Origin: an uncultured Armatimonadia bacterium
Lineage (GTDB): Bacteria; Armatimonadota; Zipacnadia; CAZGSV01
Direction of reading: 5' to 3'
NCBI GenBank assembly: GCA_964528605.1
Contig: CAZGSV010000009.1
Location: forward strand, 156 to 64,155
Length of the DNA stretch: 64,000 bases
The first letter of the stretch is position 1; each line of letters begins with the position of its first letter. Below, one piece after another: positions 25,881 through 64,000 of this stretch. A program made the position numbers and the translations under genes. The notes below the pieces were generated by a model. It saw nothing but the letters and a program-made list of their open reading frames with translations. It was not told the DNA's origin and ran no database searches.

Positions 25881-25969
25881 GCCCAGGTGGTGGAATTGGT
25901 AGACACGCAAGGTTGAGGGCCTTGTGAACGCATTAGTTCATGGGGGTTCGAGTCCCCCCCTGGGCACCA
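25881..25969 (+). tRNA. tRNA-Leu(GAG)
   Basis: Acceptor GCCCAGG/CCTGGGC, anticodon stem CAAGG/CCTTG with loop TTGAGGG, long variable arm, T-arm GGGGG-TTCGAGT-CCCCC, encoded CCA. Confidence 0.85.
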
Positions 25970-26022
25970 GCGGTAGCAGCCCGCGCTCAACCTCCGCGAG
26001 AGACGGATGTTGAAAGCGCACG

Positions 26023-26100
26023 GTGGGCGGTTGGCTCAGCGGCGACGCGCCCCGCCAACCGCGGGGAGGTCGCAGGTTCACCGCACTTTGAGATGTCATG
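26023..26100 (+). pseudogene. Degenerate tRNA-Val-like pseudo-tRNA
   Basis: The 5' part is identical to tRNA-Val (GGTGGGCGGTTGGCTCAGCGGC). The anticodon arm is altered (CCCCG-CCAACCG-CGGGG), the T-loop has a 5-nt deletion (GCAGGTTCA-CCGCAC), and there is no acceptor 3' strand. It is followed by a 14-nt spacer TTTGAGATGTCATG. Confidence 0.4.
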
Positions 26101-26102
26101 GT

Positions 26103-26177
26103 GGGCGGTTGGCTCAGCGGCAGAGCGCTTGCTTCACACGCAAGAGGTCGCAGGTTCAAATCCCGCACCGCCCACCA
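26103..26177 (+). tRNA. tRNA-Val(CAC)
   Basis: Acceptor GGGCGGT/ACCGCCC, D-arm GCTC-AGCGGCA-GAGC, anticodon stem CTTGC/GCAAG with loop TTCACAC, T-arm GCAGG-TTCAAAT-CCCGC (one A-C mismatch), encoded CCA. Confidence 0.8.
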
Positions 26178-26218
26178 CCTGCCATTACCTTTCCCCCCAC
26201 CCAGCCTCCCACCGCGCG

Positions 26219-26280
26219 GAGGCCGCAGGTTCGCCGCACCTTGAGATGTCATGGTGGGCGGTTGGCTCAGCGGCGACGCG
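26219..26280 (+). pseudogene. Pseudo-tRNA-Val fragments: a 3'-part-like segment, the 14-nt spacer, then a 5' half
   Basis: AGGCCGCAGGTTCGCCGCAC-CTTGAGATGTCATG-GTGGGCGGTTGGCTCAGCGGCGACGCG repeats the junction seen upstream of tRNA-Val. Confidence 0.35.
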
Positions 26281-26401
26281 GCCTCAAGCGCCCGCGCCCC
26301 GTCTACCGTATGCCGTCTACCGTCTGTTCCTCCCTCCCTGGCTACTGTCTACTGTCTGCTGGCTACTTCCCCCTCCCCTCTGCCCACTGCCCTCATCCCC
26401 C

Positions 26402-26430
26402 TTGCGCCCACCCGTGCGCCGGGCTAGAAT
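26402..26430 (+). promoter_or_regulatory. Candidate sigma70 promoter for tRNA-Gly
   Basis: TTGCGC, 17-nt spacer, TAGAAT (26425-30), 10 nt upstream of the tRNA start. Confidence 0.45.
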
Positions 26431-26440
26431 TGCCCACCGA

Positions 26441-26515
26441 GCGGAATTAGCTCAACGGTAGAGCAGCGGCTTCCCAAGCCGAAGGTTGCGGGTTCGAATC
26501 CCGTATTCCGCTCCA
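26441..26515 (+). tRNA. tRNA-Gly(CCC)
   Basis: GCGGAAT-TA-GCTC-AACGGTA-GAGC-A-GCGGC-TTCCCAA-GCCGA-AGGTT-GCGGG-TTCGAAT-CCCGT-ATTCCGC-T-CCA. Confidence 0.85.
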
Positions 26516-32274: not shown

Positions 32275-32349
<75 letters not shown>

Positions 32350-32438
32350 TGCACTCACACAGCCTCTCTCTCGTGCCCCCGTCGTCAGACATTTAGGAGC
32401 CACGTTGTCCGTCACCGGCGGCAGCAGCGCTTGCGCGC

Positions 32439-32600
32439 CGTAGGCGGGTCTGCCCGCCTCGGCAGGGCGCCGACTAGGCGCGTAGGGGCGACCCCCCGTG
32501 GTCGCCTGCGCGCTGGAGCCCCGCCACCGGCGGGGCGACGTAGGGGCCGATTCTTAATCGGCCCGCGATGCCGCCAGGCATCGAGTAGGGGCGGGCTAGC
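32439..32600 (+). repeat. Array of four GTAGG-prefixed GC-rich stem-loops
   Basis: CGTAGGCGGG-TCTG-CCCGCC; GTAGGGGCGACC-CCCCGT-GGTCGCC; GTAGGGGCCGATT-CTT-AATCGGCCC; GAGTAGGGGCGGGC. The CGTAGG/GTAGGGGC motif recurs at 32439, 32481, 32540 and 32585. Confidence 0.4.
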
Positions 32601-32649
32601 GTGTGGGTCTATCCGCCGAAGGCGGATTCAAATCCCACCTCCGGCGCCA
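32591..32649 (+). ncRNA. tRNA-like minihelix element, copy 1 (59 nt, CCA-ended)
   Basis: GCGGGCTAGCGTGTGGG-TCTATCCGCCGAAGGCGGAT-TCAAATCCCAC-CTCCGGCGCCA: an acceptor-like 5-bp stem, a T-arm GTGGG/CCCAC with a 19-nt hairpin inserted in the T-loop, and a terminal CCA. 49/59 identical to copy 2. Confidence 0.35.
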
Positions 32650-32651
32650 AC

Positions 32652-32972
32652 ATGGGCATGGCGGTCAACCGCCGGTTCGTGTACGTCCTCTGGAGTGAAT
32701 CCACGGGACGCCTGTACATCGGTATGACAGACCGCCTCCGGCACCGCATCCGCGAACACAACGCTGGCAAGGTGCGATCCACCCGTCCGCTCCGACCACT
32801 CGAACTCGTTCACCGCGAGCGCGTGGCCGACCGCGCTGCGGCGGCCGCCCGAGAACGTTGGCTCAAGAGCGGGGTCGGGCGAGAATGGCTCCACGCAGCG
32901 CTAGCCAGGGGCCCCGCGCCAGACGAGGCGGAGCCCGACGGTCCAGGCCGCCGGGAGCCTCCGCTCCAATAG
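32652..32972 (+). CDS. GIY-YIG nuclease family protein (COG2827/UPF0213-like small URI-domain protein)
   Basis: FVYVLWSESTGRLYIGMTDRLRHRIREHNAGK...STRPLRP...ERWLK is the GIY-YIG core. It starts 2 nt after the CCA of tRNA-like element 1. Confidence 0.75.
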   Translation: MGMAVNRRFVYVLWSESTGRLYIGMTDRLRHRIREHNAGKVRSTRPLRPLELVHRERVADRAAAAARERWLKSGVGREWLHAALARGPAPDEAEPDGPGRREPPLQ

Positions 32973-33028
32973 GAACCGCTCAGCGCTCGCTTCCGACCAT
33001 GCGGTGTGCTCTGCTACACTATCGCCAG

Positions 33029-33115
33029 GCCGGAGTGGCGTAATCGGCAGACGCAGAGGACTTAAAATCCTCCGCTCGCGAGGGCATGTGGGTTCGAGTC
33101 CCACCTCCGGCACCA
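33029..33115 (+). tRNA. tRNA-Leu(TAA)
   Basis: Acceptor GCCGGAG/CTCCGGC, anticodon stem GAGGA/TCCTC with loop CTTAAAA, long variable arm CGCTCGCGAGGGCAT, T-arm GTGGG-TTCGAGT-CCCAC, discriminator A, CCA. Confidence 0.85.
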
Positions 33116-51491: not shown

Positions 51492-51557
51492 CGGCTAGAG
51501 CGGCTGCACAGCACAAGTGAGCCCAACCCCACGGGTTGGGGATAATCGAGTGGTCGT

Positions 51558-51632
51558 CGGGGCGTGGCGCAGTTTGGCTAGCGCGCTTGAATGGGGTTCA
51601 AGAGGTCGGCGGTTCGAGTCCGCCCGCCCCGA
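51558..51632 (+). tRNA. tRNA-Pro(GGG)
   Basis: CGGGGCG-TG-GCGC-AGTTTGGCTA-GCGC-G-CTTGA-ATGGGGT-TCAAG-AGGTC-GGCGG-TTCGAGT-CCGCC-CGCCCCG-A. CCA is not encoded. Confidence 0.85.
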
Positions 51633-51636
51633 TAGT

Positions 51637-53333: not shown

Positions 53334-53443
53334 CCGGCACCGGAAACGATTCTGGGCAGGCAACCGTTGTGCTATATCAGAGATAGGCGCGGCCGTGCGG
53401 TCACGCGCGCTCGCTTGTGCCGAGCAGCCCGACGAACACGATC

Positions 53444-56221
53444 ATGCTGACAAAGAAACCACCGAGAGCCACTTTTCCCACGCCTCTTGCCGAGGAACTA
53501 GCGGCCATCGTCGGTCCCCAGGGCGTCATTCACGCCCCCGAAGACCTGCTCACCTACGATTGCGACGGCTACACCATAACCAAGGGCACGCCCTCGCTCG
53601 TGGTGCTGCCGCGCACCAGGGAGCAGGTCGCCAGCGTAGTCCGCTTGCTGGCGGGCCGCAAACAGCCGTTCGTCGCCCGCGGAGCGGGCACCGGCCTCAG
53701 CGGCGGCTCCGTGCCCCTGGGCGACGCCGTCATCGTCTGCCTCACGCGCATGAACCGCATCCTGGAGATTGACCCTCTCAACCGGCGCGCCGTTGTCGAG
53801 CCGGGCGTGCCCAACCTCCGCCTCTCGGACGAGACCGCGCCCTACGGCTTCAACTACGCCCCCGACCCCTCCAGTCAGGCCGTCTGCACCATCGGCGGCA
53901 ACGTCGCCGAGAACACCAGCGGACCCCATACGCTCAAGTACGGCGTTTCCTCCAACCACATTCTAGGCCTCGAGATGGTGCTGCCCAGCGGCCAGGTCAT
54001 TACGCTCGGCGGCAAGCACGAGGACCCCGCCGGCTATGACCTCCGCGGGGTGGTCATCGGCTCCGAGGGCACCTTCGGCATCGTGACCGAGGCCATCGTG
54101 CGCCTCACCCCCCTGCCCGACTCCGCGCGCACTATGCTCGCCGCCTTTGATACGCTCGACCAGTCCTCCGAGACCGTCACCGCCATCATCGCCGCCGGCA
54201 TCATCCCCGCCGCCCTCGAGATGATAGACAAGACGTTCATCCGCCCGGTCGAGGAGGCCTTCCACTTCGGTTTCCCGCTGGACGCCGAGGCCGTGCTCAT
54301 CATCGAGTTGGATGACCCGGAGGCCGGGCTGGACGCGCTCGCGACCCGAGTGGCCGAAATCTGCCAACAGCACGGCGTCCGCGATGTGCGTCTCGCGCGC
54401 AATCAGGAGGAGCGCGACCTCCTCTGGAAGAGCCGCAAGATGGCAGTCCCCGCCGCGGGCCGCTACTACCCCACCAGCGTTACACAGGACGGCGTGGTGC
54501 CCCGCAGCAGACTGCCTGAGGTCCTGCGCGAAATCCGCCGCATCGGCGAGCAGTACGGCATCGCCATCGGCAACGTCTTCCACGCCGGCGACGGCAACCT
54601 GCACCCCGTGGTGCTCTTCGACGACCGCGACCCCGACCAGCTGGCGCGCATGCGCCAGGCCTCCGAGGCCATCCTGCGCCATTGCGTCCTCCTCGGCGGT
54701 AGCATTACCGGCGAGCACGGCGTCGGCGTCGAGAAGATGCGCCACATGCGGCTCCAGTTCTCCGAGGCCGAACTGGACCTGATGCGCCGCATCCGCTCCG
54801 TCTTCGACCCCGAAGGACTCGCCAATCCGGGCAAGGTGGTGCCCGAGCCTCAACCGCCCGGCGACAAGCCTCAGGAGGCTTCCGCGCCTACCCCGGCGGG
54901 CAACGCCGAGGACCGACTGCGGCAGGAGTTGGGAGAGGACGCCGTCGCCCAGGGCGACCCGTCCCTCGCGCTTGATGGCGTTGCGCCACGGTGGCGCGTG
55001 TCCCCGAAGACCGAAGAGCAAGTCTGCGCCGTGCTCAGGGCCGCCGCCGAACATGGGCTCGGCGTGGTTCCCATCGCCGGCGGCACCGATCTCCACGTCG
55101 GCTACGCTCCGCGCCGCTACGACATCGCGCTCTGCCTTGACCGAATGCCCGCCACCGTTGACGTCCAGGCCGCGGACATGAGCGTGCGCGTTGGCGCCGG
55201 CGTCACGCTGCACCAACTTCAGCAGGCTCTGGCGGCCCACGGCCAGTTCCTCCCCCTGCTCGTTCCCCATGCGGAAAGAGCAACCGTCGGCGGGATAGTC
55301 GCCTCCGGTCGAAGTGGCCCGCTGCGCTTCGGCTATCGCGGCGTGCGTGACCTGCTGCTAGGCATCAAAGTGGCGCTGCCCAACGGCGAAATGGCGCGCA
55401 ACGGCGGCGCGATTGTGAAGAACGTTGCCGGCTACGACTTCGGCAAACTGTACCTCGGCAGCCGCGGCAGCCTGGGAGTCGTCCTCGAGGCCACCTTCCG
55501 CACCTACCCGCTCCCCGAGCACTCCTCCACGCTCGTGGCCGCGTTCCCCCAGGAGGCGCAGGCCCAGCGAGCCTTCGAGGCGCTCATGACCTCCCGCCTG
55601 CCGCTGTCCATGCTCGACTTGCTGGACCCGCACGCGCTGGCGGCGACGCCCGCACTGCCGTCCATCTCCAATGCTTGGGCGCTGGTAATCGGAGCCGAAG
55701 GCGCGCAGGTCGTCGCCGCATGGGTGGTCATGCGCGCCCGGGAAATCTGCGTCCGGAGCGGCGCCGCCACGGTCGCCCGTTTGGTGGGGCAGACCAGCGC
55801 TCGGGCAAGAACATTGACCGCGGAGGTCTCCGATCACCCGGACGCCTTGCTCTCCACGCGCGCCTCGACGTCCGCCGCGGCCACCTTCGCCGTGATCGCC
55901 AAGGCGCGCGAGTTGGCGCGCGACCTGGGCCTCCGCTGCCTGGCCTGCGCGCACGCCGGCAACGGAATCGCCCACGTTCATTTCCTCCCGGGTGCCGCGC
56001 CACCTGCGCAGGACGCCTTGCTGGCCCTGTGCGAGGACTTCAGCAAGGGGGTGTCCTCACTCCAGGGCAGCGTGACCTGGGAGCGCGTTCCCAGCGGTCT
56101 GAAAGCGCGCCTCGACCTCTGGGCCCCGCTCGGCAACGACTTCGCGCTCATGCGGCGGCTCAAAGAAACGCTCGACCCGCGCGGCATCATGTCGCCGGGA
56201 AGGTACCTCGGGAGGCTCTAG
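53444..56221 (+). CDS. glcDE: Glycolate oxidase GlcD-GlcE fusion (FAD-linked oxidase subunits D and E in one polypeptide)
   Basis: The first half is collinear with E. coli GlcD (RGAGTGLSGG, PDPSSQ..C.IGGNVAEN.GG.H.LKYG, HAGDGN.HP, GEHG.G). The second half has a second FAD-binding PCMH domain (VPIAGGTDL...GGAIVKNVAGYDFGKLYLGS) typical of GlcE. Confidence 0.8.
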   Translation: MLTKKPPRATFPTPLAEELAAIVGPQGVIHAPEDLLTYDCDGYTITKGTPSLVVLPRTREQVASVVRLLAGRKQPFVARGAGTGLSGGSVPLGDAVIVCLTRMNRILEIDPLNRRAVVEPGVPNLRLSDETAPYGFNYAPDPSSQAVCTIGGNVAENTSGPHTLKYGVSSNHILGLEMVLPSGQVITLGGKHEDPAGYDLRGVVIGSEGTFGIVTEAIVRLTPLPDSARTMLAAFDTLDQSSETVTAIIAAGIIPAALEMIDKTFIRPVEEAFHFGFPLDAEAVLIIELDDPEAGLDALATRVAEICQQHGVRDVRLARNQEERDLLWKSRKMAVPAAGRYYPTSVTQDGVVPRSRLPEVLREIRRIGEQYGIAIGNVFHAGDGNLHPVVLFDDRDPDQLARMRQASEAILRHCVLLGGSITGEHGVGVEKMRHMRLQFSEAELDLMRRIRSVFDPEGLANPGKVVPEPQPPGDKPQEASAPTPAGNAEDRLRQELGEDAVAQGDPSLALDGVAPRWRVSPKTEEQVCAVLRAAAEHGLGVVPIAGGTDLHVGYAPRRYDIALCLDRMPATVDVQAADMSVRVGAGVTLHQLQQALAAHGQFLPLLVPHAERATVGGIVASGRSGPLRFGYRGVRDLLLGIKVALPNGEMARNGGAIVKNVAGYDFGKLYLGSRGSLGVVLEATFRTYPLPEHSSTLVAAFPQEAQAQRAFEALMTSRLPLSMLDLLDPHALAATPALPSISNAWALVIGAEGAQVVAAWVVMRAREICVRSGAATVARLVGQTSARARTLTAEVSDHPDALLSTRASTSAAATFAVIAKARELARDLGLRCLACAHAGNGIAHVHFLPGAAPPAQDALLALCEDFSKGVSSLQGSVTWERVPSGLKARLDLWAPLGNDFALMRRLKETLDPRGIMSPGRYLGRL

Positions 56222-57544
56222 GTGGCGGCGTCTTTGGAGACGGAACGCGAGCGCACTGTGCAGCAGGCCATCGAGGAACTCTACCTCGATTGCGTCCACT
56301 GCGGCATGTGCCAAAGCGCGTGTCCGACCTATGACCTGCTCGGCACCGAGATGGACTCGCCCCGCGGGCGCATCTATCTCATTCGCGCCCTCGCCGAGGG
56401 CCGCTTACCCCTCTCCCCGGCGATCCTCCAGCACCTCAACCTGTGCCTAGGATGCCGCGGTTGCGAGACCGACTGCCCCTCCTCGGTCTACTCGGCGCGT
56501 CTGCTCGAGGAAGCGCGCGCGGAGTTGCTCCACGTGCGTCGCAGCGACGCCGCCAACCTCTTCCTCCGCGGCGTGGTGCGCTGGATAATGCCCAACAGCC
56601 TGCTCTTCGCGCTCGCGGTGGCGCCGGCTCGCGTGCTGCGCAAACTGCTCCCCGCCTGGGTGGGGGCGCGGGGCAAACCCTTGGACGGGAGCGTGCGCGG
56701 CTTCCGGCGCTTGCTCGCGATGCTGCCCGATGATTCGCCCGCCTCGCCAGAGCCCGCCACCATAACCCCCGCTGTCGGCGAGCGGCGCTCCCGCGTCGGC
56801 ATCCTCACCGGATGCGTGCAGCCGGTGCTCTTCCCCGGGGTCAACCTCTCCACCGCGCGCCTGCTTGCCCATCTGGGCCACGAAGTCCACGCCCCGCGCG
56901 CCCAGGTGTGCTGCGGAGCCATCTCCTCCCACGACGGCGACCTCGAAGGCGCCAGGCGGCTGGCAAGAAAGAACCTCCAGGTCTTCGAGGCGCTCGGCTT
57001 GGACACCATCGTCGTCAACGCGCCCGGCTGCGCCGCCATGATGAAGGACTACGGCTGGCTGCTGCGCAACGACCCCCAGTACGCGCAGCGCGCGGCGCGC
57101 TTCGCGGCTAAAGTGCGCGACCTAAGCGAGTTCGTCGCCGCCGGCCCGCTGCCCGAGCCCGTGGACAAGTTCCCCCACCTCGTCACCTACCATGAGCCCT
57201 GCCAACTCGCGCACGGTCAAAAGATACGCAAGCAGCCGCGCCAACTCCTCAACGCCGTTCCCGGCCTGCGCCTCCTGGAAATGCGGCAATCCGACCGCTG
57301 CTGCGGCGGCGCCGGCTCCTACACCTTGCTCCAGCCGGAGACCTCGGACCTGCTGCTGCGGGCCAAGTTGCAGAACGCCGCAGAGACCCGCGCCGAAATG
57401 ATCGTCACCTCCAATCCTCCCTGCCTGCTTCAGATCGGTATGGGCCTGCGCCGCACCCAGAGCGGCCAGAGGCTCGTCCACCTCGTCGAAGTGCTGGAAA
57501 AGGCCTTCGTAGGCCCCATATCACCGCCGGCCAAAGCCAAGTAG
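56222..57544 (+). CDS. glcF: Glycolate oxidase iron-sulfur subunit GlcF
   Basis: Two Cys clusters, CVHCGMCQSACPTY and CLGCRGCETDCPS, plus a C-terminal CCG-type domain (CCGGAGSY). GTG start abuts the glcDE stop. Confidence 0.8.
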   Translation: MAASLETERERTVQQAIEELYLDCVHCGMCQSACPTYDLLGTEMDSPRGRIYLIRALAEGRLPLSPAILQHLNLCLGCRGCETDCPSSVYSARLLEEARAELLHVRRSDAANLFLRGVVRWIMPNSLLFALAVAPARVLRKLLPAWVGARGKPLDGSVRGFRRLLAMLPDDSPASPEPATITPAVGERRSRVGILTGCVQPVLFPGVNLSTARLLAHLGHEVHAPRAQVCCGAISSHDGDLEGARRLARKNLQVFEALGLDTIVVNAPGCAAMMKDYGWLLRNDPQYAQRAARFAAKVRDLSEFVAAGPLPEPVDKFPHLVTYHEPCQLAHGQKIRKQPRQLLNAVPGLRLLEMRQSDRCCGGAGSYTLLQPETSDLLLRAKLQNAAETRAEMIVTSNPPCLLQIGMGLRRTQSGQRLVHLVEVLEKAFVGPISPPAKAK

Positions 57545-57717: not shown

Positions 57718-60090
57718 ATGGCGTCGGACGAGTATGGTAACAGCGGGGCCATGAGCGAACAGCCTAAGGAACTCGCGCTCACCGCCGAGTTGCGCGACGC
57801 GGCCACCAGCGCCGTTGACGCCTTGGCTCGAGCGGCGCAGCAGGCCCTGCTCTACCCCGCTGGCCATCCCGTGTCGGAGGCTGCCTTCGAGCGCGCCGAG
57901 ACGGCGCTCGAGCACCTGCTCTCCATGCGCGACCCGGTAATGGTCACCGCCAGCCCTGACGGCCTGCAACTCGACGAACTCGGCATGGTTGATACCCCCG
58001 CCGCCGCCGGCCTGGCGCGGGAGATGCGCAAGCGCGGGATAGCGCTCGGCCGGTTGCGGTCGGGCGTAACCGCAGCGGAATTGCGCGCCTTCATCGGCCT
58101 GCTCGGCGCCGAAATGAGCCAGTTGGAGGCGGCCGGCGGTCCCTCCCGCATGCTCGCCGACCGCCAGGTGCAGCACATCGAGGTCGGCGAACTCGATTTC
58201 TCCCGCTGGGTGCGGGCCTCCGCCGCTCCAGCCAGCGCTGCCGCCTCCGAGACCATGACTACTGCCAGGCTGGATCAGGCGCTCCGCGCCTTCCTCTTCG
58301 GCGGCGCCGAAGTGCTCTCCGACGAGGCTTACGAGAGGCTCCTGGAAGTACTTGAGCGCCCGGAGGATGCAGCCGCGTTCCTGGCGGAGGCGCCGCGCGC
58401 GGGCGGTACCACGCACACGGAGTTGGGGAGGAGAGGAAGGCCGGGCGTCAGCCGCGGAACCGACGAAGCGGACGAGGCCATGCTCTCGCGGGCCGACGTG
58501 CTGCCGGAAACGGAAGACCGGCCGGCGGCAGCCGTCGCCGGCGCTCTCCAACAGGCCTACCGCGCCATGCGCACTCATTCGCTGGACAATCCGCCCGAGG
58601 CCCTCGGCAGGCTCGCGGGCGTGGTTAGGGTCTTGCCGGCCCACACGCGCTCGCGCGTGTACCGGGCGCCCTTGGTGCTGGAGGAAAATGAGCAGGACGT
58701 GCTCACGGAGATCGGGAAACTGCTCAGCGGGGGCGAGTGCGCCGAGATCATCGTGCCCGGCGCTCAGGCGCTGCTGGCCGAGACCTCCGCGCAACTCGAG
58801 CGCCTGCTCAACCGGCTGGCCGCCGGTGGCAGGGACGCCGACCAACTCCTCGGCCTAGTTCAAGAACGGCTCCGCGCCTTCGGCATTCCCAGCGAACTGT
58901 ACAACAACACCATCAACCTGCTGCTCCGCCGCACCGAGCAACCCTCCCTCATGCAGGCGATAGAGGAAGGCGCCGTCCCCATCCCCGAGTCCCCCCTCAC
59001 CCCCGCCCTGCTGCCAGGCCCCCCCGACCAGCAGCGCGAGACCATCGAGAAAGCGCTCAGTTCCGAGGAGACCGCGGAGGCCAGAGCGCTGACGCTGGCC
59101 GAAGTCCTGCTCCACGAAGAGGATGCCACCGCCTACAACCGGCTCGCGTTGCTGGCCGAGCGTCTGGTGCCGGAACTGGCCGACGAGCGCATGTTCCGTG
59201 CCGCCGCTCGCATCGTCAGCGTTCTTGACGGTCAGACCGAGGAGGTCAGCGAGTCGCTCGCCTGGCAGCCTCTGCGGGCGGAGCAGGCTCTGGAAGCGAT
59301 CCGCACCGAGAGCCTCGTCAAGAGAACGCAAGAAGCCTTCGACCGCGCCGGGGAGCGGGCCTCGGGCGAACTGGCCGAGTGGCTGGCCATGATGGGCCCC
59401 GGAGGAGCGGCCTTCCTGGCCAAGGCGGTGCTCGACCCTCGCTTCGCCCATCTGCGCGACGCCCTGCTCGCTAGCCTGGTCAAGTGGGGCGACCAGGCCA
59501 ACCCGGGTATCGAGCAACTTCTCGCCGAATTCGGCCCTCGCCAAGGAGGGCAGTTGGTGCGCTTGTTGGGTGAAGCCGGTGACAAGCGCGCCTCCCGTCA
59601 CGTGCGCCTCTGGCTAAGAGGTGACAACGTAGAGCGGGCGCTTCAGGGCCTCGCCGTGCTCGCCTCGGCTGCCGACCGCGAGGCCGTGCGCGTGCTGGTG
59701 GAAACCGCGCAGCGCGGTGACCGGGAATTGCGCATGGAAGCGGTTGACCTTCTGGGCGAGGCACGAGAGGAGAGCGCCGTGCCGGTGCTGGCGGACCTGG
59801 CGCTGGGACACAGTTGCCCTGCCAGTGACATTCCTCTCCGCACCCGGGCGATCCGCGCACTCGGCCTGCTGCCCACGCCTGGCGCCGAACGGACGCTGGA
59901 GCAAATACTGGAAAAGCGGCCGGCTCTATGGGCCGGGCGTCTGGAGGCTCTTCGCATCGAGGCAGCCCGCGCACTCGGCAAGGCCGCCACCGCGGCGGCC
60001 AAGCGCGCGTTGGACCGTTGGCGCCGGCAGGCGCGCGGCCCCCTGCGTGAGGCCTGCGAGCAAGCACTCAAGGAGGCGCTGGGGCAGTGA
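57718..60090 (+). CDS. Protein with an N-terminal domain paralogous to that of the downstream HD-GYP protein, plus C-terminal HEAT repeats
   Basis: The N-terminal roughly 170 aa align with gene 60087's N-terminus (LLYPAGHPVSEAAFERAETALEHLL vs RLYGVEHPSVVGALREAEAALVELL; ...GVTAAELRAFIGLLGAE vs GVTLAELTALVELLDAD). The C-terminus has HEAT-like repeats (VRVLVETAQRGDRELRMEAVDLLG...). Confidence 0.55.
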   Translation: MASDEYGNSGAMSEQPKELALTAELRDAATSAVDALARAAQQALLYPAGHPVSEAAFERAETALEHLLSMRDPVMVTASPDGLQLDELGMVDTPAAAGLAREMRKRGIALGRLRSGVTAAELRAFIGLLGAEMSQLEAAGGPSRMLADRQVQHIEVGELDFSRWVRASAAPASAAASETMTTARLDQALRAFLFGGAEVLSDEAYERLLEVLERPEDAAAFLAEAPRAGGTTHTELGRRGRPGVSRGTDEADEAMLSRADVLPETEDRPAAAVAGALQQAYRAMRTHSLDNPPEALGRLAGVVRVLPAHTRSRVYRAPLVLEENEQDVLTEIGKLLSGGECAEIIVPGAQALLAETSAQLERLLNRLAAGGRDADQLLGLVQERLRAFGIPSELYNNTINLLLRRTEQPSLMQAIEEGAVPIPESPLTPALLPGPPDQQRETIEKALSSEETAEARALTLAEVLLHEEDATAYNRLALLAERLVPELADERMFRAAARIVSVLDGQTEEVSESLAWQPLRAEQALEAIRTESLVKRTQEAFDRAGERASGELAEWLAMMGPGGAAFLAKAVLDPRFAHLRDALLASLVKWGDQANPGIEQLLAEFGPRQGGQLVRLLGEAGDKRASRHVRLWLRGDNVERALQGLAVLASAADREAVRVLVETAQRGDRELRMEAVDLLGEAREESAVPVLADLALGHSCPASDIPLRTRAIRALGLLPTPGAERTLEQILEKRPALWAGRLEALRIEAARALGKAATAAAKRALDRWRRQARGPLREACEQALKEALGQ

Positions 60091-61562
60091 CCGCAGACGA
60101 GCCGACCGAGCGGAAAACCCCCACCCCCCCCGCCCGCCAACCCGAGGAGGGCTCGCGGGCAGAAGCCGCAGCCGGCGAGAACGTCGTCAACTGCATCGCC
60201 GTGGCCCTCAAGAACAAGCGCCTATACGGCGTCGAGCACCCCAGCGTGGTAGGCGCGCTCCGCGAGGCAGAGGCGGCCCTGGTGGAACTGCTGCGCCTGG
60301 TGCCCGAAGTGTCCTTCAAGTTCGTCGCCGGCGAGATCGTGCTCGAAAGCCGTCCCCTCTTCCGCGCCGAAGAGCGCCGCCGCCCCCTCTGGCAGGATTG
60401 CAGCAAGCGCCGCATCCAAGTGCTCACCTTCGACGTGGGCGTTACCCTGGCCGAACTCACCGCCCTGGTGGAACTCCTCGACGCCGATCCTGACGCGGTG
60501 CAGGCCCGCGGCGGGCCCAACGCCTTCCTCAAGGAGCGCGAGGTAGAACGCATCACCGCCGAAAGCGCCGCCTACCTCGACATCGGCCCCGCGGGCGAGT
60601 ACCTCGCCGGCACCGTGCTCGGCACCCACTTCGCCGGCGTCAACACCGTCAAGCAGGCCATGCAGTGCGCCCTCGATGGGCTCCCCATTGACGCCTCCGC
60701 CGCCCGCGCCGTCGCCTCCCAGATCCTCACCAACCTCCAGGAGGACCCCGCCCTCCTGCTCAGCCTCACCGCCATCAAGGCCTACGACGAGTACACCTTC
60801 AGCCACTGCGTCAATCTCTCGCTCTTGGCCGTCTGTCTGGGCGCCTACATCGGCCTGCGCCAGCAGGACCTCTCCGAACTGGCCACCGCCGGAATGCTCC
60901 ACGACGTGGGCAAGGTCTTTGTCCCCCTCGCCATTCTCCGCAAGCCCGGGAAGATGACCGAAGAGGAATGGGGCATCATGGTCGAGCACCCCCGCCGCGG
61001 TGCGCGCGTGCTCTTCGAGACCGAGGACGCCCCCCGCCTCGCGCCCGTGATCGCCTTTGAGCACCACCTGCGCTGGAACCTCAGCGGCTATCCCAAACTG
61101 CGCTACGCCCGCACGCTCCACCCTTATTCCATGATGATCACCCTGGGCGACTTCTACGACGCCTTGACCAGCGCCCGCCCCTACCGCAAGCCCTTCCCCC
61201 CCTTCGAGGCCTTGGCGCTCATGACCGAGGCCTCCGGCACCGAGTTCGAGCCCGGCCTCTTGGCGGCCTTTCAGGCCATGATGGGGCCCTTCCCCATCGG
61301 CACCGTCGTGCGCTTGTCCGACCGCACGCTCGGCATCGTCATCCGCCCAGGTCCCAGGCCGGATGTGCCGCCCACTGTCGCCCTCGTCGCCGACGCCGAC
61401 GGCCACCGCTTGGAGACCCCCGAAGAGAAAGACCTGGCCGCCCCTGGCGCACCCCAGATTGACGCTACCTTGGACCCCACGCGCCTGGGCGTGGACCCCC
61501 AGATGATCATGGTGGAGTTGTTGGCCGCCCGCGATCGGGCGCGCCAACCGGTCCAGTCCTAA
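60087..61562 (+). CDS. HD-GYP domain phosphohydrolase (predicted c-di-GMP phosphodiesterase) with an N-terminal sensory domain
   Basis: HD motif LLHDVGK; HHLRWNLSGYP is the HD-GYP signature. The GTG start overlaps the upstream stop as GTGA. Confidence 0.75.
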   Translation: MTADEPTERKTPTPPARQPEEGSRAEAAAGENVVNCIAVALKNKRLYGVEHPSVVGALREAEAALVELLRLVPEVSFKFVAGEIVLESRPLFRAEERRRPLWQDCSKRRIQVLTFDVGVTLAELTALVELLDADPDAVQARGGPNAFLKEREVERITAESAAYLDIGPAGEYLAGTVLGTHFAGVNTVKQAMQCALDGLPIDASAARAVASQILTNLQEDPALLLSLTAIKAYDEYTFSHCVNLSLLAVCLGAYIGLRQQDLSELATAGMLHDVGKVFVPLAILRKPGKMTEEEWGIMVEHPRRGARVLFETEDAPRLAPVIAFEHHLRWNLSGYPKLRYARTLHPYSMMITLGDFYDALTSARPYRKPFPPFEALALMTEASGTEFEPGLLAAFQAMMGPFPIGTVVRLSDRTLGIVIRPGPRPDVPPTVALVADADGHRLETPEEKDLAAPGAPQIDATLDPTRLGVDPQMIMVELLAARDRARQPVQS

Positions 61563-61652: not shown

Positions 61653-62996
61653 ATGCGAATCCTCGTGGTTGGGGGCAACGCGGCCGGCCTGAGCGCAGCC
61701 AGCAAGGCTCGCCGGACCGCCGCTGACGTGGAAATCCTGGTGCTGGAGCGCGGCCGCGACATCTCCTACGCCCAATGCGGGCTACCCTACTTGCTCAGCG
61801 GCATGGTCGCCGACGAAGCCGCGCTGGTCCACTTCACGCCTGCCGGCATCATGCGCGAGCGGGGAATAGAGGTGCGCACCGGTCATTACGTCACCGCGCT
61901 CCGCCTCTCCGAACACCAGGTGCTGGGCGAGAGAACGGACGGGACTCCGTTCGCCGAGCCTTACGACCGCCTCATTCTCGCCACCGGCGCCCGGCCGCGC
62001 GTGCCGCCCGCGCTCTCCCGACCGGCAAGCAACGTCTTCACCTTGCACACTTACCAAGACCTCAGGCGGCTGCGCGTATTCCTGGCCGCGCAGAAGCCGC
62101 CACGAGTCACCATCGTCGGCGCTTCCTACCTCGGCCTGGAGATGGCCGAGGCTTTTCGCACCCTCGGGCTCGCGGTCACGGTCCTGGAGGCGTCGCCCCA
62201 GCCGCTGCCCGGTTTCGACTCCCCCCTGGCCTCGCTGGCAGCCGCCGAACTAGCCCGCAACAACGTTCACTTGATGCTCGAGAGGCCGGCAAGCGCCCTC
62301 GACATTGATGGCAGCGGCATCTGCCGCGCCGTCGTCGGCGACTGGGGCAGCCAGGATTGCGACGCGGTGCTGCTCGCCCTAGGCGTGCGGCCCAACGTGG
62401 AACTGGCCGAGCAGGCGCACCTGCGCCTAGGGCCGACGGGCGCTATCCCCACCGACCGCCGCCTGGCCACCGAGCGCCCCGGCGTCTTCGCCTGCGGCGA
62501 CTGCGCCGAAACCGTGCACCTGGTCACCGGCAAGCCGACTTGGGTGCCGCTGGGCTCTACAGCGAACAAGCAGGGCCGCGTCGCCGGCGCCAACGCGGTG
62601 GGCGGCGACGAGTCGTTCTCCGGCGTCGTCGGCACCGCCGGCCTGCGCCTCTTCAATCTGGAGATGGCGCGCACCGGCCTTTCTCTCAGAGAAGCCCAAG
62701 CGTCCGGCTTCGAGGCGGCGGTGGTAACCATAACCGCGCCCTCGCGCGCGGCCTACATGCGCGGGGCCTCGGAGATCACCATCAGCCTAGTGGTCGAGTC
62801 GGCTACGCGCCGGATTCTGGGCGCCCACGCCGCCGGCAAGGAAGGGGTCGCCAAGAGAGTGGACCTGTTCGCGGTGGCGGCCGCCCAGGGGCTGACCGCC
62901 GACGACGTGGCGGGCTGGGACCTCTCCTACGCGCCGCCGTTCGCTCCGGTCTGGGACCCGGTGCTCGTCGCCGCCAACGTCGCCCGCCGCAGGTAG
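61653..62996 (+). CDS. FAD-dependent pyridine nucleotide-disulfide oxidoreductase (CoA-disulfide reductase / NADH oxidase family)
   Basis: ILVVGGNAAGLSAASKARR (FAD GxGxxG), CGLPY redox Cys, VTIVGASYLGLEMAEA (NAD GxGxxG), CGDCA. GGAGG SD. Confidence 0.8.
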   Translation: MRILVVGGNAAGLSAASKARRTAADVEILVLERGRDISYAQCGLPYLLSGMVADEAALVHFTPAGIMRERGIEVRTGHYVTALRLSEHQVLGERTDGTPFAEPYDRLILATGARPRVPPALSRPASNVFTLHTYQDLRRLRVFLAAQKPPRVTIVGASYLGLEMAEAFRTLGLAVTVLEASPQPLPGFDSPLASLAAAELARNNVHLMLERPASALDIDGSGICRAVVGDWGSQDCDAVLLALGVRPNVELAEQAHLRLGPTGAIPTDRRLATERPGVFACGDCAETVHLVTGKPTWVPLGSTANKQGRVAGANAVGGDESFSGVVGTAGLRLFNLEMARTGLSLREAQASGFEAAVVTITAPSRAAYMRGASEITISLVVESATRRILGAHAAGKEGVAKRVDLFAVAAAQGLTADDVAGWDLSYAPPFAPVWDPVLVAANVARRR

Positions 62997-63081
62997 CCCC
63001 GTTCGCTAGCAAACTACCTGTAGCGTCCGGCTTTACGCCGGACGCATTGCCCACCTCGGGCATGAAGCCCGACGCTACCGA

Positions 63082-64000
63082 TTACCTCAGCCCCTGCTCG
63101 CTTAGCCAGCGCTCGCAATCCATCGCCGCCATGCAGCCGCAGCCGGCCGCCGTCACCGCCTGCCGATACTTGCTGTCGTGCACGTCCCCCGCGGCGAAGA
63201 CGCCCGGCACACTCGTGGCCGCGCCCTCGCCCCGCACCACGTAGCCCTTCTCGTCCAACTCCAACTGGCCGCGGAAGACCGCCGTGTTGGGCTCGTGCCC
63301 AATGGCCAGGAAAACGCCCTCGCACTTGCGCTCCGAGAGCGAGCCCTCCTTCACGTTCCGCAGCCGCACCCCCACCACCTTGCCCTGCGCCACGTCGAGA
63401 ATGTCCTCCACCACGCTGTTCCAGACGAACTCGATCTTCTCGTTGGCGAAGGCACGCTCTTGCAGAATCCTGGAGGCCCGTAGGGCATCGCGACGGTGCA
63501 CCACATAGACTCTCTCGGCGTAGCGTGTGAGAAAGATGGCTTCCTCCATGGCGCTGTCGCCGCCCCCGACCACCACCACTTCCTGTCCGCGGAAGAAAAA
63601 GCCGTCGCAGGTGGCGCACACGGAGACGCCGGCGCCGAGCAATTGCCGCTCGGAGTCGAGCCCCAGCATGCGGGCGGAGGCGCCGGTGGCGATGATGAGA
63701 GCGTGGGCCTCGAAGGTCTCGCCTTCGGCATCCACCACCAACGGCCGGCGCGACAGCTCCACGCCGGTGGCTTCCTTCATCAGTATCTCCGCGCCGAAGC
63801 GCTCCGCCTGCTCGCGCATTTGGCGCATGAGTTCCGGGCCTTCGATGCCCTCGCGGAAACCCGGGTAGTTCTCGACTTCACTGGTCAGCGTCAGTTGGCC
63901 GCCGGGCATCCGCCCGCCTATGACCAACGGTTGCAGCAGGCCCCGCCCGGTGTAAATGGCTGCGGTCAGCCCCGCCGGGCCCGAGCCACAGATGATGACT
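63082..64000 (-). CDS. trxB: Thioredoxin reductase (partial; N-terminus lies beyond the window end)
   Basis: CATCDGFFFRGQEVVVVGGGDSAMEEAIFLTRYA (redox CATC plus NADPH GxGxxA), FAAGDVHD. Upstream, in-frame sequence continues to the window edge, encoding the FAD GSGPAG motif. Confidence 0.85.
   Translation of the reverse strand, partial: VIICGSGPAGLTAAIYTGRGLLQPLVIGGRMPGGQLTLTSEVENYPGFREGIEGPELMRQMREQAERFGAEILMKEATGVELSRRPLVVDAEGETFEAHALIIATGASARMLGLDSERQLLGAGVSVCATCDGFFFRGQEVVVVGGGDSAMEEAIFLTRYAERVYVVHRRDALRASRILQERAFANEKIEFVWNSVVEDILDVAQGKVVGVRLRNVKEGSLSERKCEGVFLAIGHEPNTAVFRGQLELDEKGYVVRGEGAATSVPGVFAAGDVHDSKYRQAVTAAGCGCMAAMDCERWLSEQGLR

Follow-up and report, generated by a model that had tools for sequence, protein, structure and literature searches.

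A conserved HEAT-repeat/HD-GYP gene pair with a shared, uncatalogued N-terminal domain: a candidate heteromeric module of cyclic di-GMP signalling

A 64,000-nucleotide stretch of DNA from an uncultured Armatimonadia bacterium (assembly GCA_964528605.1, contig CAZGSV010000009.1, positions 156 to 64,155; hereafter the window) carries two overlapping genes, A and B, which encode a HEAT-repeat protein and an HD-GYP protein of the cyclic di-GMP (c-di-GMP) phosphodiesterase class. Both proteins begin with a copy of one domain, here called the N-domain. The A-B pair is kept together across at least four bacterial phyla, and the N-domain is a widespread, confidently folding signalling domain with no model in Pfam or NCBIfam and no counterpart in the PDB. 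A and B likely constitute a conserved heteromeric module. We lean, with guarded confidence, towards a co-translated two-subunit c-di-GMP phosphodiesterase complex in which a scaffold and an enzyme would be joined through their paralogous N-domains. This appears to be the most economical reading because of the paralogy, the strict co-occurrence and the typical stop/start overlap of the genes.

An overlapping gene pair with paralogous N-terminal domains

The features on which the argument rests are as follows.

57718-60090, + strand: gene A, ATG start, 790 amino acids (aa); N-domain, conserved helical middle region and HEAT repeats; proposed non-catalytic subunit.
60087-61562, + strand: gene B, GTG start, 491 aa; N-domain, linker helix, HD-GYP domain and C-terminal beta module; predicted catalytic subunit.
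60087-60090, + strand: GTGA overlap of 4 nucleotides (nt), start of B on the stop of A, read directly from the sequence.
60070-60076, + strand: Shine-Dalgarno-like AAGGAGG within the 3' end of gene A, 10 nt 5' of the GTG of B.
57784-58209, + strand: A-type copy of the N-domain (A residues 23-164), with LYPAGHP at the helix1-helix2 turn and a GG loop; profile search E=3e-68.
60156-60584, + strand: B-type copy of the N-domain (B residues 24-166), with LYGVEHP and GG; aligned to A by BLASTP.

A sequence-only reading made earlier had described two open reading frames joined by a GTGA overlap, and both were present at 57718-60090 and 60087-61562. Gene A has the same gene call in three public assemblies. 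At the junction (...GGGGCAGTGACC...), which reads ...CAG TGA / GTG A.., the GTG of B occupies 60087-60089 and the TGA of A occupies 60088-60090. This GTG is the sole in-frame start between the upstream stop and the conserved domain of B. Together with the internal ribosome-binding site, the stop-start overlap matches what is expected of a translationally coupled layout.

BLASTP with composition-based statistics aligned A28-154 with B29-156 as the sole significant segment (30% identity, E=2e-8). The sequence-only reading had proposed a shared N-terminus of about 170 residues and had taken an E-value above 0.01 as the sign of a similarity without significance. The homology was upheld at the value found; the length was not, since the homologous unit spans ~140 residues (A23-164 / B24-166) behind an unaligned leader of ~22 residues. 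Both motif strings singled out earlier, LY..HP...A...AE.AL..LL and GVT.AEL.A...LL.A, were recovered in the A/B alignment, and beyond the domain the proteins diverge as described, A to HEAT repeats and B to HD-GYP.

The two copies were compared with their relatives in 29 non-redundant A/B pairs (58 N-domain sequences). Mean identity was 29% among A-type domains, 33% among B-type domains and 21% between the types (22% within a locus), and the nearest neighbour belonged to the same class for 57/58 sequences. Identity by class and nearest neighbours indicate that the N-domain duplication is older than its spread across these phyla, and A-type and B-type N-domains are separate ancient lineages, both maintained. 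Near-invariant positions (Ala, Tyr, His, Pro, two Leu and GG) are common to the two types. A and B are thus true paralogs in the N-domain, as had been claimed. A mirror-tree comparison of A with B gave r=0.92, a value confounded by shared phylogeny and near-duplicate loci and not used here as evidence.

The AlphaFold2 model of the A-type N-domain had a mean predicted local distance difference test score of 94.8 and a predicted template modelling score of 0.87. Its topology consists of two long helices, followed by beta-beta-alpha-beta-alpha-alpha-alpha-beta. A profile built from the two window copies only was run in an exhaustive HMMER search of 1.84 billion cluster representatives and matched 1,647 clusters at E<=1e-3, 94 of them at E<=1e-10. 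Word-indexed homolog searches with A and with the N-terminus of B returned almost no matches. Pfam gave no consistent match at E<=1 for the N-domain of A, of B or of 62 isolated N-domains, and NCBIfam gave none at E<=0.1. The N-domain profile found nothing meaningful among all PDB sequences. Foldseek comparison of the model with the PDB returned nothing better than E=0.75 among the 50 matches listed, and comparison with viral structures returned nothing significant. No earlier account of the N-domain, or of a HEAT partner for HD-GYP enzymes, was found in the HD-GYP census and full-text searches of an incomplete library.

Conservation of the A-B pair

Public annotations of the pair are generic ('HD-GYP domain-containing protein', 'HEAT repeat protein'). 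The B side was sampled through 80 reference-genome HD-GYP loci listed, 9 with the N-domain and 71 generic. An A-like gene stood directly upstream on the same strand in 9/9 of the N-domain loci and in 0/71 of the generic ones (Fisher p=4e-12). The nine loci belong to Acidobacteriota (including Vicinamibacterales), Elusimicrobia, Syntrophaceae and Eisenbacteria. On the A side, an A-like alignment recovered 27 metagenomic loci. The contig goes past the A gene in 21 of these, and the next gene was B-like in 21/21. Failure of the pair to be conserved together, a possibility raised with the original proposal, was therefore not seen on either side.

The arrangement persists at low sequence identity: P0002/L004 shows the same A-B order with a 4-nt overlap at ~27-28% identity. 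An Acidobacteria metagenome-assembled genome (MAG) contig (L006, 3-7324) reads A-B-A-B, two consecutive pairs each with an ATGA overlap, and the module is duplicated there in tandem. In a first set of junctions the stop and start overlapped in 12/12 pairs, nine of them as ATGA/GTGA. In a second set 13/18 overlapped, three lay within 10 nt and two had gaps of ~86-89 nt. Over both sets ~25/30 non-redundant pairs overlap and 28/~30 lie within 10 nt. No third gene conserved with A-B across phyla was found; flanking genes were common only to related Acidobacteriota loci.

The two loci with gaps of ~86-89 nt between A and B (L098, 6174-8198, and L104, 8353-10500) have an extra HD-GYP gene without an N-domain downstream.

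Proposed complex and other uses of the N-domain

In the complex that we propose, B would be the catalytic subunit, with a probable binuclear metal site, and would convert c-di-GMP to pGpG. A would be the non-catalytic subunit, consisting of an ancient paralogous N-domain and a long run of helices with HEAT repeats at its end. A and B would be made together in fixed proportion, because the start of B overlaps the stop of A. The paralogous N-domains may then bring the two proteins together in a pseudo-symmetric heterodimer, in the way that a single-gene enzyme would homodimerise. The HEAT solenoid of A may hold the phosphodiesterase at a target or partner, or gate the enzyme. The paralogy, the confident fold of the N-domain, the intact catalytic motifs, the strict co-occurrence and the coupled gene layout are shown here, and from them we infer the A-B contact, its interface, the enzyme activity and the HEAT role.

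The N-domain also occurs outside the pair. Architectures were counted in the best 150 of the 1,647 N-domain clusters, and the atypical ones were scanned with Pfam. Two forms dominated these best 150 matches: ~59 had the N-domain with the A-body/HEAT region, and ~35 had the N-domain with HD-GYP, with or without the C-terminal module. Several of the others were histidine kinases. Pfam resolved N-domain-PAS-HisKA-HATPase in P0017, P0034 and P0126, N-domain-GAF-HisKA-HATPase in P0105, and N-domain-PAS-HATPase without a HisKA match in P0130. Pfam also identified P0109 (1403 aa) as GGDEF-AAA_16-N-N-HEAT and P0132 (1145 aa) as Ser/Thr kinase-N-HEAT-MshEN. MshEN is a c-di-GMP receptor domain. The N-domain is apparently a general signalling input or interaction module that extends beyond the HEAT/HD-GYP pair, because it also heads cytoplasmic histidine kinases. 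Fusions tie the N-domain/HEAT scaffold to the synthesis and sensing of c-di-GMP, and the operon ties it to c-di-GMP degradation.

Tandem N-domains were seen in P0006, P0021, P0065 and P0081, where the copies are adjacent or ~10 residues apart, and in P0004, with a gap of ~25. Most of the tandem proteins are truncated by the end of a contig. P0047 is a complete protein with the order N-200 aa-N-HD-GYP. The tandem N-N proteins weakly suggest that N-domains act in pairs.

Four proteins of ~640 aa (P0090, P0131, P0134 and P0145) carry the N-domain at the extreme N-terminus, followed by ~500 residues without a Pfam match. These proteins may be A-like but strongly diverged, or they may represent a third architecture.

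Several observations weigh against the proposed complex. Adjacency and coupling are evidence of co-function and co-expression and do not show that the N-domains touch. In the PAS/GAF histidine kinases the N-domain takes the classic input or sensor position, so that its main role may be ligand sensing. The counts of 9/9 and 0/71 are drawn from a sample of HD-GYP loci listed. Fusion evidence is weak: only 3-4/7 tandem proteins were classed as A-type then B-type, by an imperfect class-specific classifier (49/59 and 32/35 correct). Finally, the Glu of the GYP motif is lost in 30/30 subfamily members, and normal catalysis by B is not to be assumed.

In the main alternative, which we consider rather unlikely, A and B are parallel sensors. 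The N-domain would sense a small ligand or signal, and the two proteins, each perhaps a homodimer, would respond independently, B by altering its hydrolysis of c-di-GMP and A by altering the protein binding of its HEAT repeats, co-expressed as one pathway. The N-domain lies upstream of PAS or GAF in P0017, P0034, P0105, P0126 and P0130; it is modular and joined to several output types; and its near-invariant Tyr, His and GG loop, kept in both classes, are as expected of a binding site. Sensing alone, however, leaves the overlapping codons in ~25/30 pairs unexplained, and the A and B genes were never found apart (9/9 among the loci listed, 21/21). The tandem N-N fusions suggest paired action, and no ligand can be proposed because the fold has no PDB match. 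Parallel sensing is, moreover, compatible with heterodimerisation and could be combined with it.

In a wider version of the two-subunit proposal, the N-domain (LYPxxHP ... GVTxxEL ... GG) would be a new, widespread cytoplasmic domain for signal input that acts as a dimer and, in A/B, forms an obligate heterodimeric sensor. The HD-GYP domain and the HEAT scaffold would both read its state simultaneously, and the scaffold would place the phosphodiesterase so that c-di-GMP is controlled locally. Histidine kinases, a GGDEF cyclase and a Ser/Thr-kinase/MshEN protein would take their input from this domain too, and the change of Glu to a hydrophobic residue in the GYP loop would mark the docking site for the partner. 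As a whole this picture is doubtful, and we offer it tentatively.

Catalytic motifs of protein B

The catalytic half of B comprises two features.

60777-61286, + strand: HD-GYP domain (residues 231-400), delimited by Pfam HD_5, the PmGH alignment and invariant columns in 32 subfamily members.
61287-61526, + strand: C-terminal beta-rich module (residues ~401-480), GPFPIGTVVRLSDRTLGIV..., GxYPxGxxVRLxxGE; kept across the subfamily.

B matched Pfam HD_5 at E=1.6e-19 and PmGH (4mcw) at E=2e-28. Its motif residues are H240, H272-D273, K286-P-G, H301, H326-H327, G334-Y-P, D355/D358 and R364-P-Y-R367. The metal ligands H240, H272/D273, H301, H326/H327 and D355 align to those of PmGH and are invariant or nearly so in the 32 subfamily members, as are the c-di-GMP contact motifs KPG (K286) and RxY[K/R] (R364-P-Y-R367). 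The roles of these metal-ligand, KPG and RxY[K/R] residues are taken from the HD-GYP census (10.1101/2021.11.05.467447).

At the position of PmGH E185, which lies four residues ahead of the first His, B has Tyr, as do 26/32 subfamily members. An acidic third-metal ligand marks the trinuclear subclass able to take pGpG to GMP (10.1101/2021.11.05.467447). The Tyr would place B in the binuclear subclass, still within the HD-GYP family. Because the third-metal Glu is replaced by Tyr, the correlation published in the same census predicts that B has a binuclear metal site and turns c-di-GMP into pGpG only.

The GYP motif of B is HHLRWNLSGYP (window 61062-61094, residues 326-336). HH and GYP are kept, and relative to HHExxDGxGYP the Glu has become Leu and DG has become NL. 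The Glu is replaced by L/M/V/I in 30/30 subfamily members with a readable motif (L004-L109), whereas generic HD-GYPs of the same sample almost always keep it. In Bd1817 the equivalent Glu (E239) does not bind metal but stabilises the fold of the GYP loop, which is surface-exposed and has been proposed as a surface for partner binding (PMC3188283). Loss of the Glu in this subfamily might be tied to the binding of A, which is speculation on our part.

The altered loop also allows for B to be a degenerate HD-GYP that acts as a receptor for c-di-GMP or pGpG, in which case A-B would be an effector complex and not a degrading enzyme. Replacement of the Glu by a hydrophobic residue in all 30 members and frequent alteration of DG (NL in the window) fit such a role, and Bd1817 itself lacks a strong phosphodiesterase phenotype (PMC3188283). 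We nevertheless judge it improbable: all metal ligands, KPG and RxY[K/R] are invariant or nearly so across the 32 members, and the missing Glu is not itself a metal ligand, its Bd1817 equivalent (E239) having a role in loop folding.

The C-terminal module is without a Pfam model. It was also found in 13/71 generic HD-GYPs, namely the six DUF3391-type enzymes (bar two) and related short, Firmicute-type ones. A comparable unannotated 'novel C-terminal domain' has been described in Leptospira DUF3391-HD-GYP proteins (PMC12943098).

Relation of the N-domain to DUF3391

The sequence-only reading had suggested that the N-domain corresponds to DUF3391, and this assignment did not hold. Pfam DUF3391 (PF11871) gave no match at E<=1 in A, B or the 62 isolated N-domains. 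As positive controls, six genuine DUF3391 domains were taken from generic HD-GYP loci (L013, L016, L017, L022, L042 and L052); Pfam recognised them at E=1e-9 to 1e-37, and they were aligned for profile comparison. The N-domain family gave an hhalign probability of 0.4% against the six verified domains, and the B-type N-domain alone gave 0.5% against DUF3391. DUF3391 has 4-5 antiparallel beta-strands first and then helices (10.1101/2021.11.05.467447, PMC12943098, PMC3188283), a topology other than that of the N-domain. In Bd1817 the N-terminal domain (residues 1-78) is followed by three linker helices (PMC3188283). The Bd1817 structure (3tm8) was absent among the 50 Foldseek matches listed for the N-domain.

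A relation to DUF3391 was detected further along protein B, in the linker.

60585-60776, + strand: B linker helices (residues ~167-230), the last helix homologous by hhalign to the C-terminal helix of the Pfam DUF3391 model.

Part of the linker (about residues 180-212) matched the last helix of the DUF3391 model, positions 105-136, with an hhalign probability of 82% (E=1e-5). A weak DUF3391 match (E=0.0015) occurred in 1/32 B-like proteins, because the linker helix resembles the DUF3391 model. B appears to be an enzyme of the Bd1817/COG2206 clade that has acquired a different domain of ~140 residues in place of the DUF3391 beta-domain, since the linker helix and C-terminal module are shared with that clade and the N-domain is not.

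If the N-domain were merely DUF3391, which is common on HD-GYP proteins, A would be a DUF3391-HEAT protein and the domain would not be new. The one weak match among the 32 B-like proteins (E=0.0015) and the closeness of B's HD-GYP core and C-terminal module to DUF3391-type enzymes are in keeping with this. It is very improbable all the same, given that Pfam found no DUF3391 in A, B or the 62 N-domains at E<=1, that hhalign gave 0.4% (family) and 0.5% (B-type) with the 82% signal confined to the linker helix, that the N-domain model is helix-first and DUF3391 strand-first, and that Foldseek gave a best E=0.75 with 3tm8 not among the 50 matches listed.

Protein A beyond the N-domain

The rest of protein A falls into two regions.

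58210-59472, + strand: A middle region (residues ~165-585), with family consensus RARVFRAPVV, EPSxQLERLLRRL and YRNVVGLLLD.
59473-60075, + strand: A HEAT-repeat region (residues ~586-786), with HEAT_2, alphaRep and PBS-lyase HEAT matches.

The middle region had no Pfam or PDB match to any known family. On its own, A scored 26 bits (E=1e-5) against Pfam HEAT_2, for which the cut-off is 27.7 bits. HEAT_2 was matched by 8/8 aligned members of the A family (best E=1e-22), and the A family profile matched alphaRep (E down to 4e-94) and PBS-lyase HEAT structures. A is alignable over its full length with family members of 700-840 aa.

In one Acidobacteriota MAG (L020, 2781-5043) an A-like gene is present as two open reading frames, the N-domain and then the A-body. 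The split may be a frameshift, an assembly error or real.

It had been suggested that A could act as a decoy. This is unlikely: the A copy keeps Y, H, P and GG like those of B and belongs to an ancient conserved lineage of its own, and a copy that is not degenerate argues against a passive decoy. The view that A is a decaying duplicate of the 5' end of B, or that the likeness is a compositional artefact of a 69% G+C genome, can be set aside, for although high G+C inflates Ala/Leu/Arg-rich similarity and A's own Pfam HEAT score lies just under the cut-off, BLASTP gave E=2e-8 despite composition-based statistics, the motifs are present in low-G+C homologues, A sits in a conserved family alignable over its full length, and A-type N-domains are an old, separately conserved lineage.

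Genomic context

On the 5' side of the pair (window 53417-57544) lie a fused double FAD-linked oxidase and an Fe-S CCG-domain protein, which are glycolate-oxidase-like. On the 3' side (window 61653-63927) lie a pyridine-nucleotide disulfide oxidoreductase and a minus-strand thioredoxin-reductase-like gene. Although Fe-dependent HD-GYPs are redox-sensitive, these flanking redox gene sets are probably incidental, because the context is not kept in other loci. Six tRNA genes (Leu-GAG, Val-CAC, Gly-CCC, Cys-GCA, Leu-TAA and Pro-GGG) were located at window 25881-26515, 32275-33115 and 51557-51633. Beyond these tRNAs, Rfam found no family at its threshold over the window. A defence-system role of A/B was considered and ruled out on zero PADLOC matches.

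Significance and comparison with known systems

HD-GYP proteins are the less well understood class of c-di-GMP phosphodiesterases, and their control by N-terminal domains is largely unknown. The main census of the class noted many HD-GYP proteins with undefined N-termini (10.1101/2021.11.05.467447). The present finding defines a large conserved HD-GYP subfamily paired with a putatively non-catalytic partner that bears a paralog of the enzyme's own N-domain. The enzyme class is already known; the uncatalogued N-domain and the obligate paralogous partner are new. At the domain level, the novelty is a confidently folding signalling domain outside Pfam, NCBIfam and the PDB that is also present in histidine kinases and in GGDEF or MshEN proteins. 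At the motif level, it is an alteration, specific to the subfamily, of the GYP loop, where partners are known to bind.

The catalytic core of B is closest to the Bd1817 / PA4108 / VC2497 family (DUF3391-HD-GYP, COG2206). B shares with that family the linker helix (hhalign 82%) and the C-terminal beta module, and its members, like B, are single-enzyme phosphodiesterases of the cytoplasm whose N-terminal domain has an unknown role. B differs in its globular N-domain (hhalign 0.4-0.5%, other topology), in the loss of the HHE Glu throughout its subfamily, and in its upstream partner gene with a paralogous N-domain, which 0/71 of the generic HD-GYP loci listed possess.

Among solved structures, PmGH (GAF-HD-GYP, PDB 4MCW/4MDZ) is the best match to the catalytic domain of B (E=2e-28). 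The metal ligands, KPG and RxxK-type substrate contacts of PmGH recur in B, whereas PmGH has the E185 ligand, a trinuclear site and a GAF N-terminal domain and has no partner gene. RpfG (REC-HD-GYP) is an HD-GYP enzyme with a role in protein complexes, as proposed for B. The GYP region has been described as a surface for binding partners, including GGDEF proteins (PMC3188283), and one may speculate that A contacts the altered GYP region of B. Unlike B, RpfG is controlled by REC phosphorylation and is without a paralogous partner. The C-terminal ~200 residues of A are like PBS-lyase / alphaRep-type HEAT proteins (CpcE/F, NblB). A scores 21 bits against the 300-bit equivalog cut-off of NblB, however, and differs from these proteins in having 585 further unrelated residues and no hint of a bilin link.

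The closest working model, and the experimental precedent, is RcbA/RcbB. RcbAB of Vibrio vulnificus is a bicistronic pair with a shared N-terminal domain through which the proteins interact; the non-catalytic partner relieves repression of the c-di-GMP enzyme and anchors it (PMC12282931). The RcbAB proteins share a TPR domain, and their enzyme is a GGDEF cyclase. In A/B the common domain is compact and alpha/beta, an HD-GYP hydrolase takes the place of the cyclase, and helical repeats (HEAT) lie at the C-terminus of the partner. The two systems have no sequence homology, and the interaction shown for RcbAB is a prediction for A/B. If the two-subunit complex is real, A/B would be to c-di-GMP hydrolysis what the recently described RcbAB system is to its synthesis by a cyclase. 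It would then also offer a tractable way to study local, scaffolded c-di-GMP signalling in Acidobacteriota and in other phyla of soil and sediment that have received little attention.

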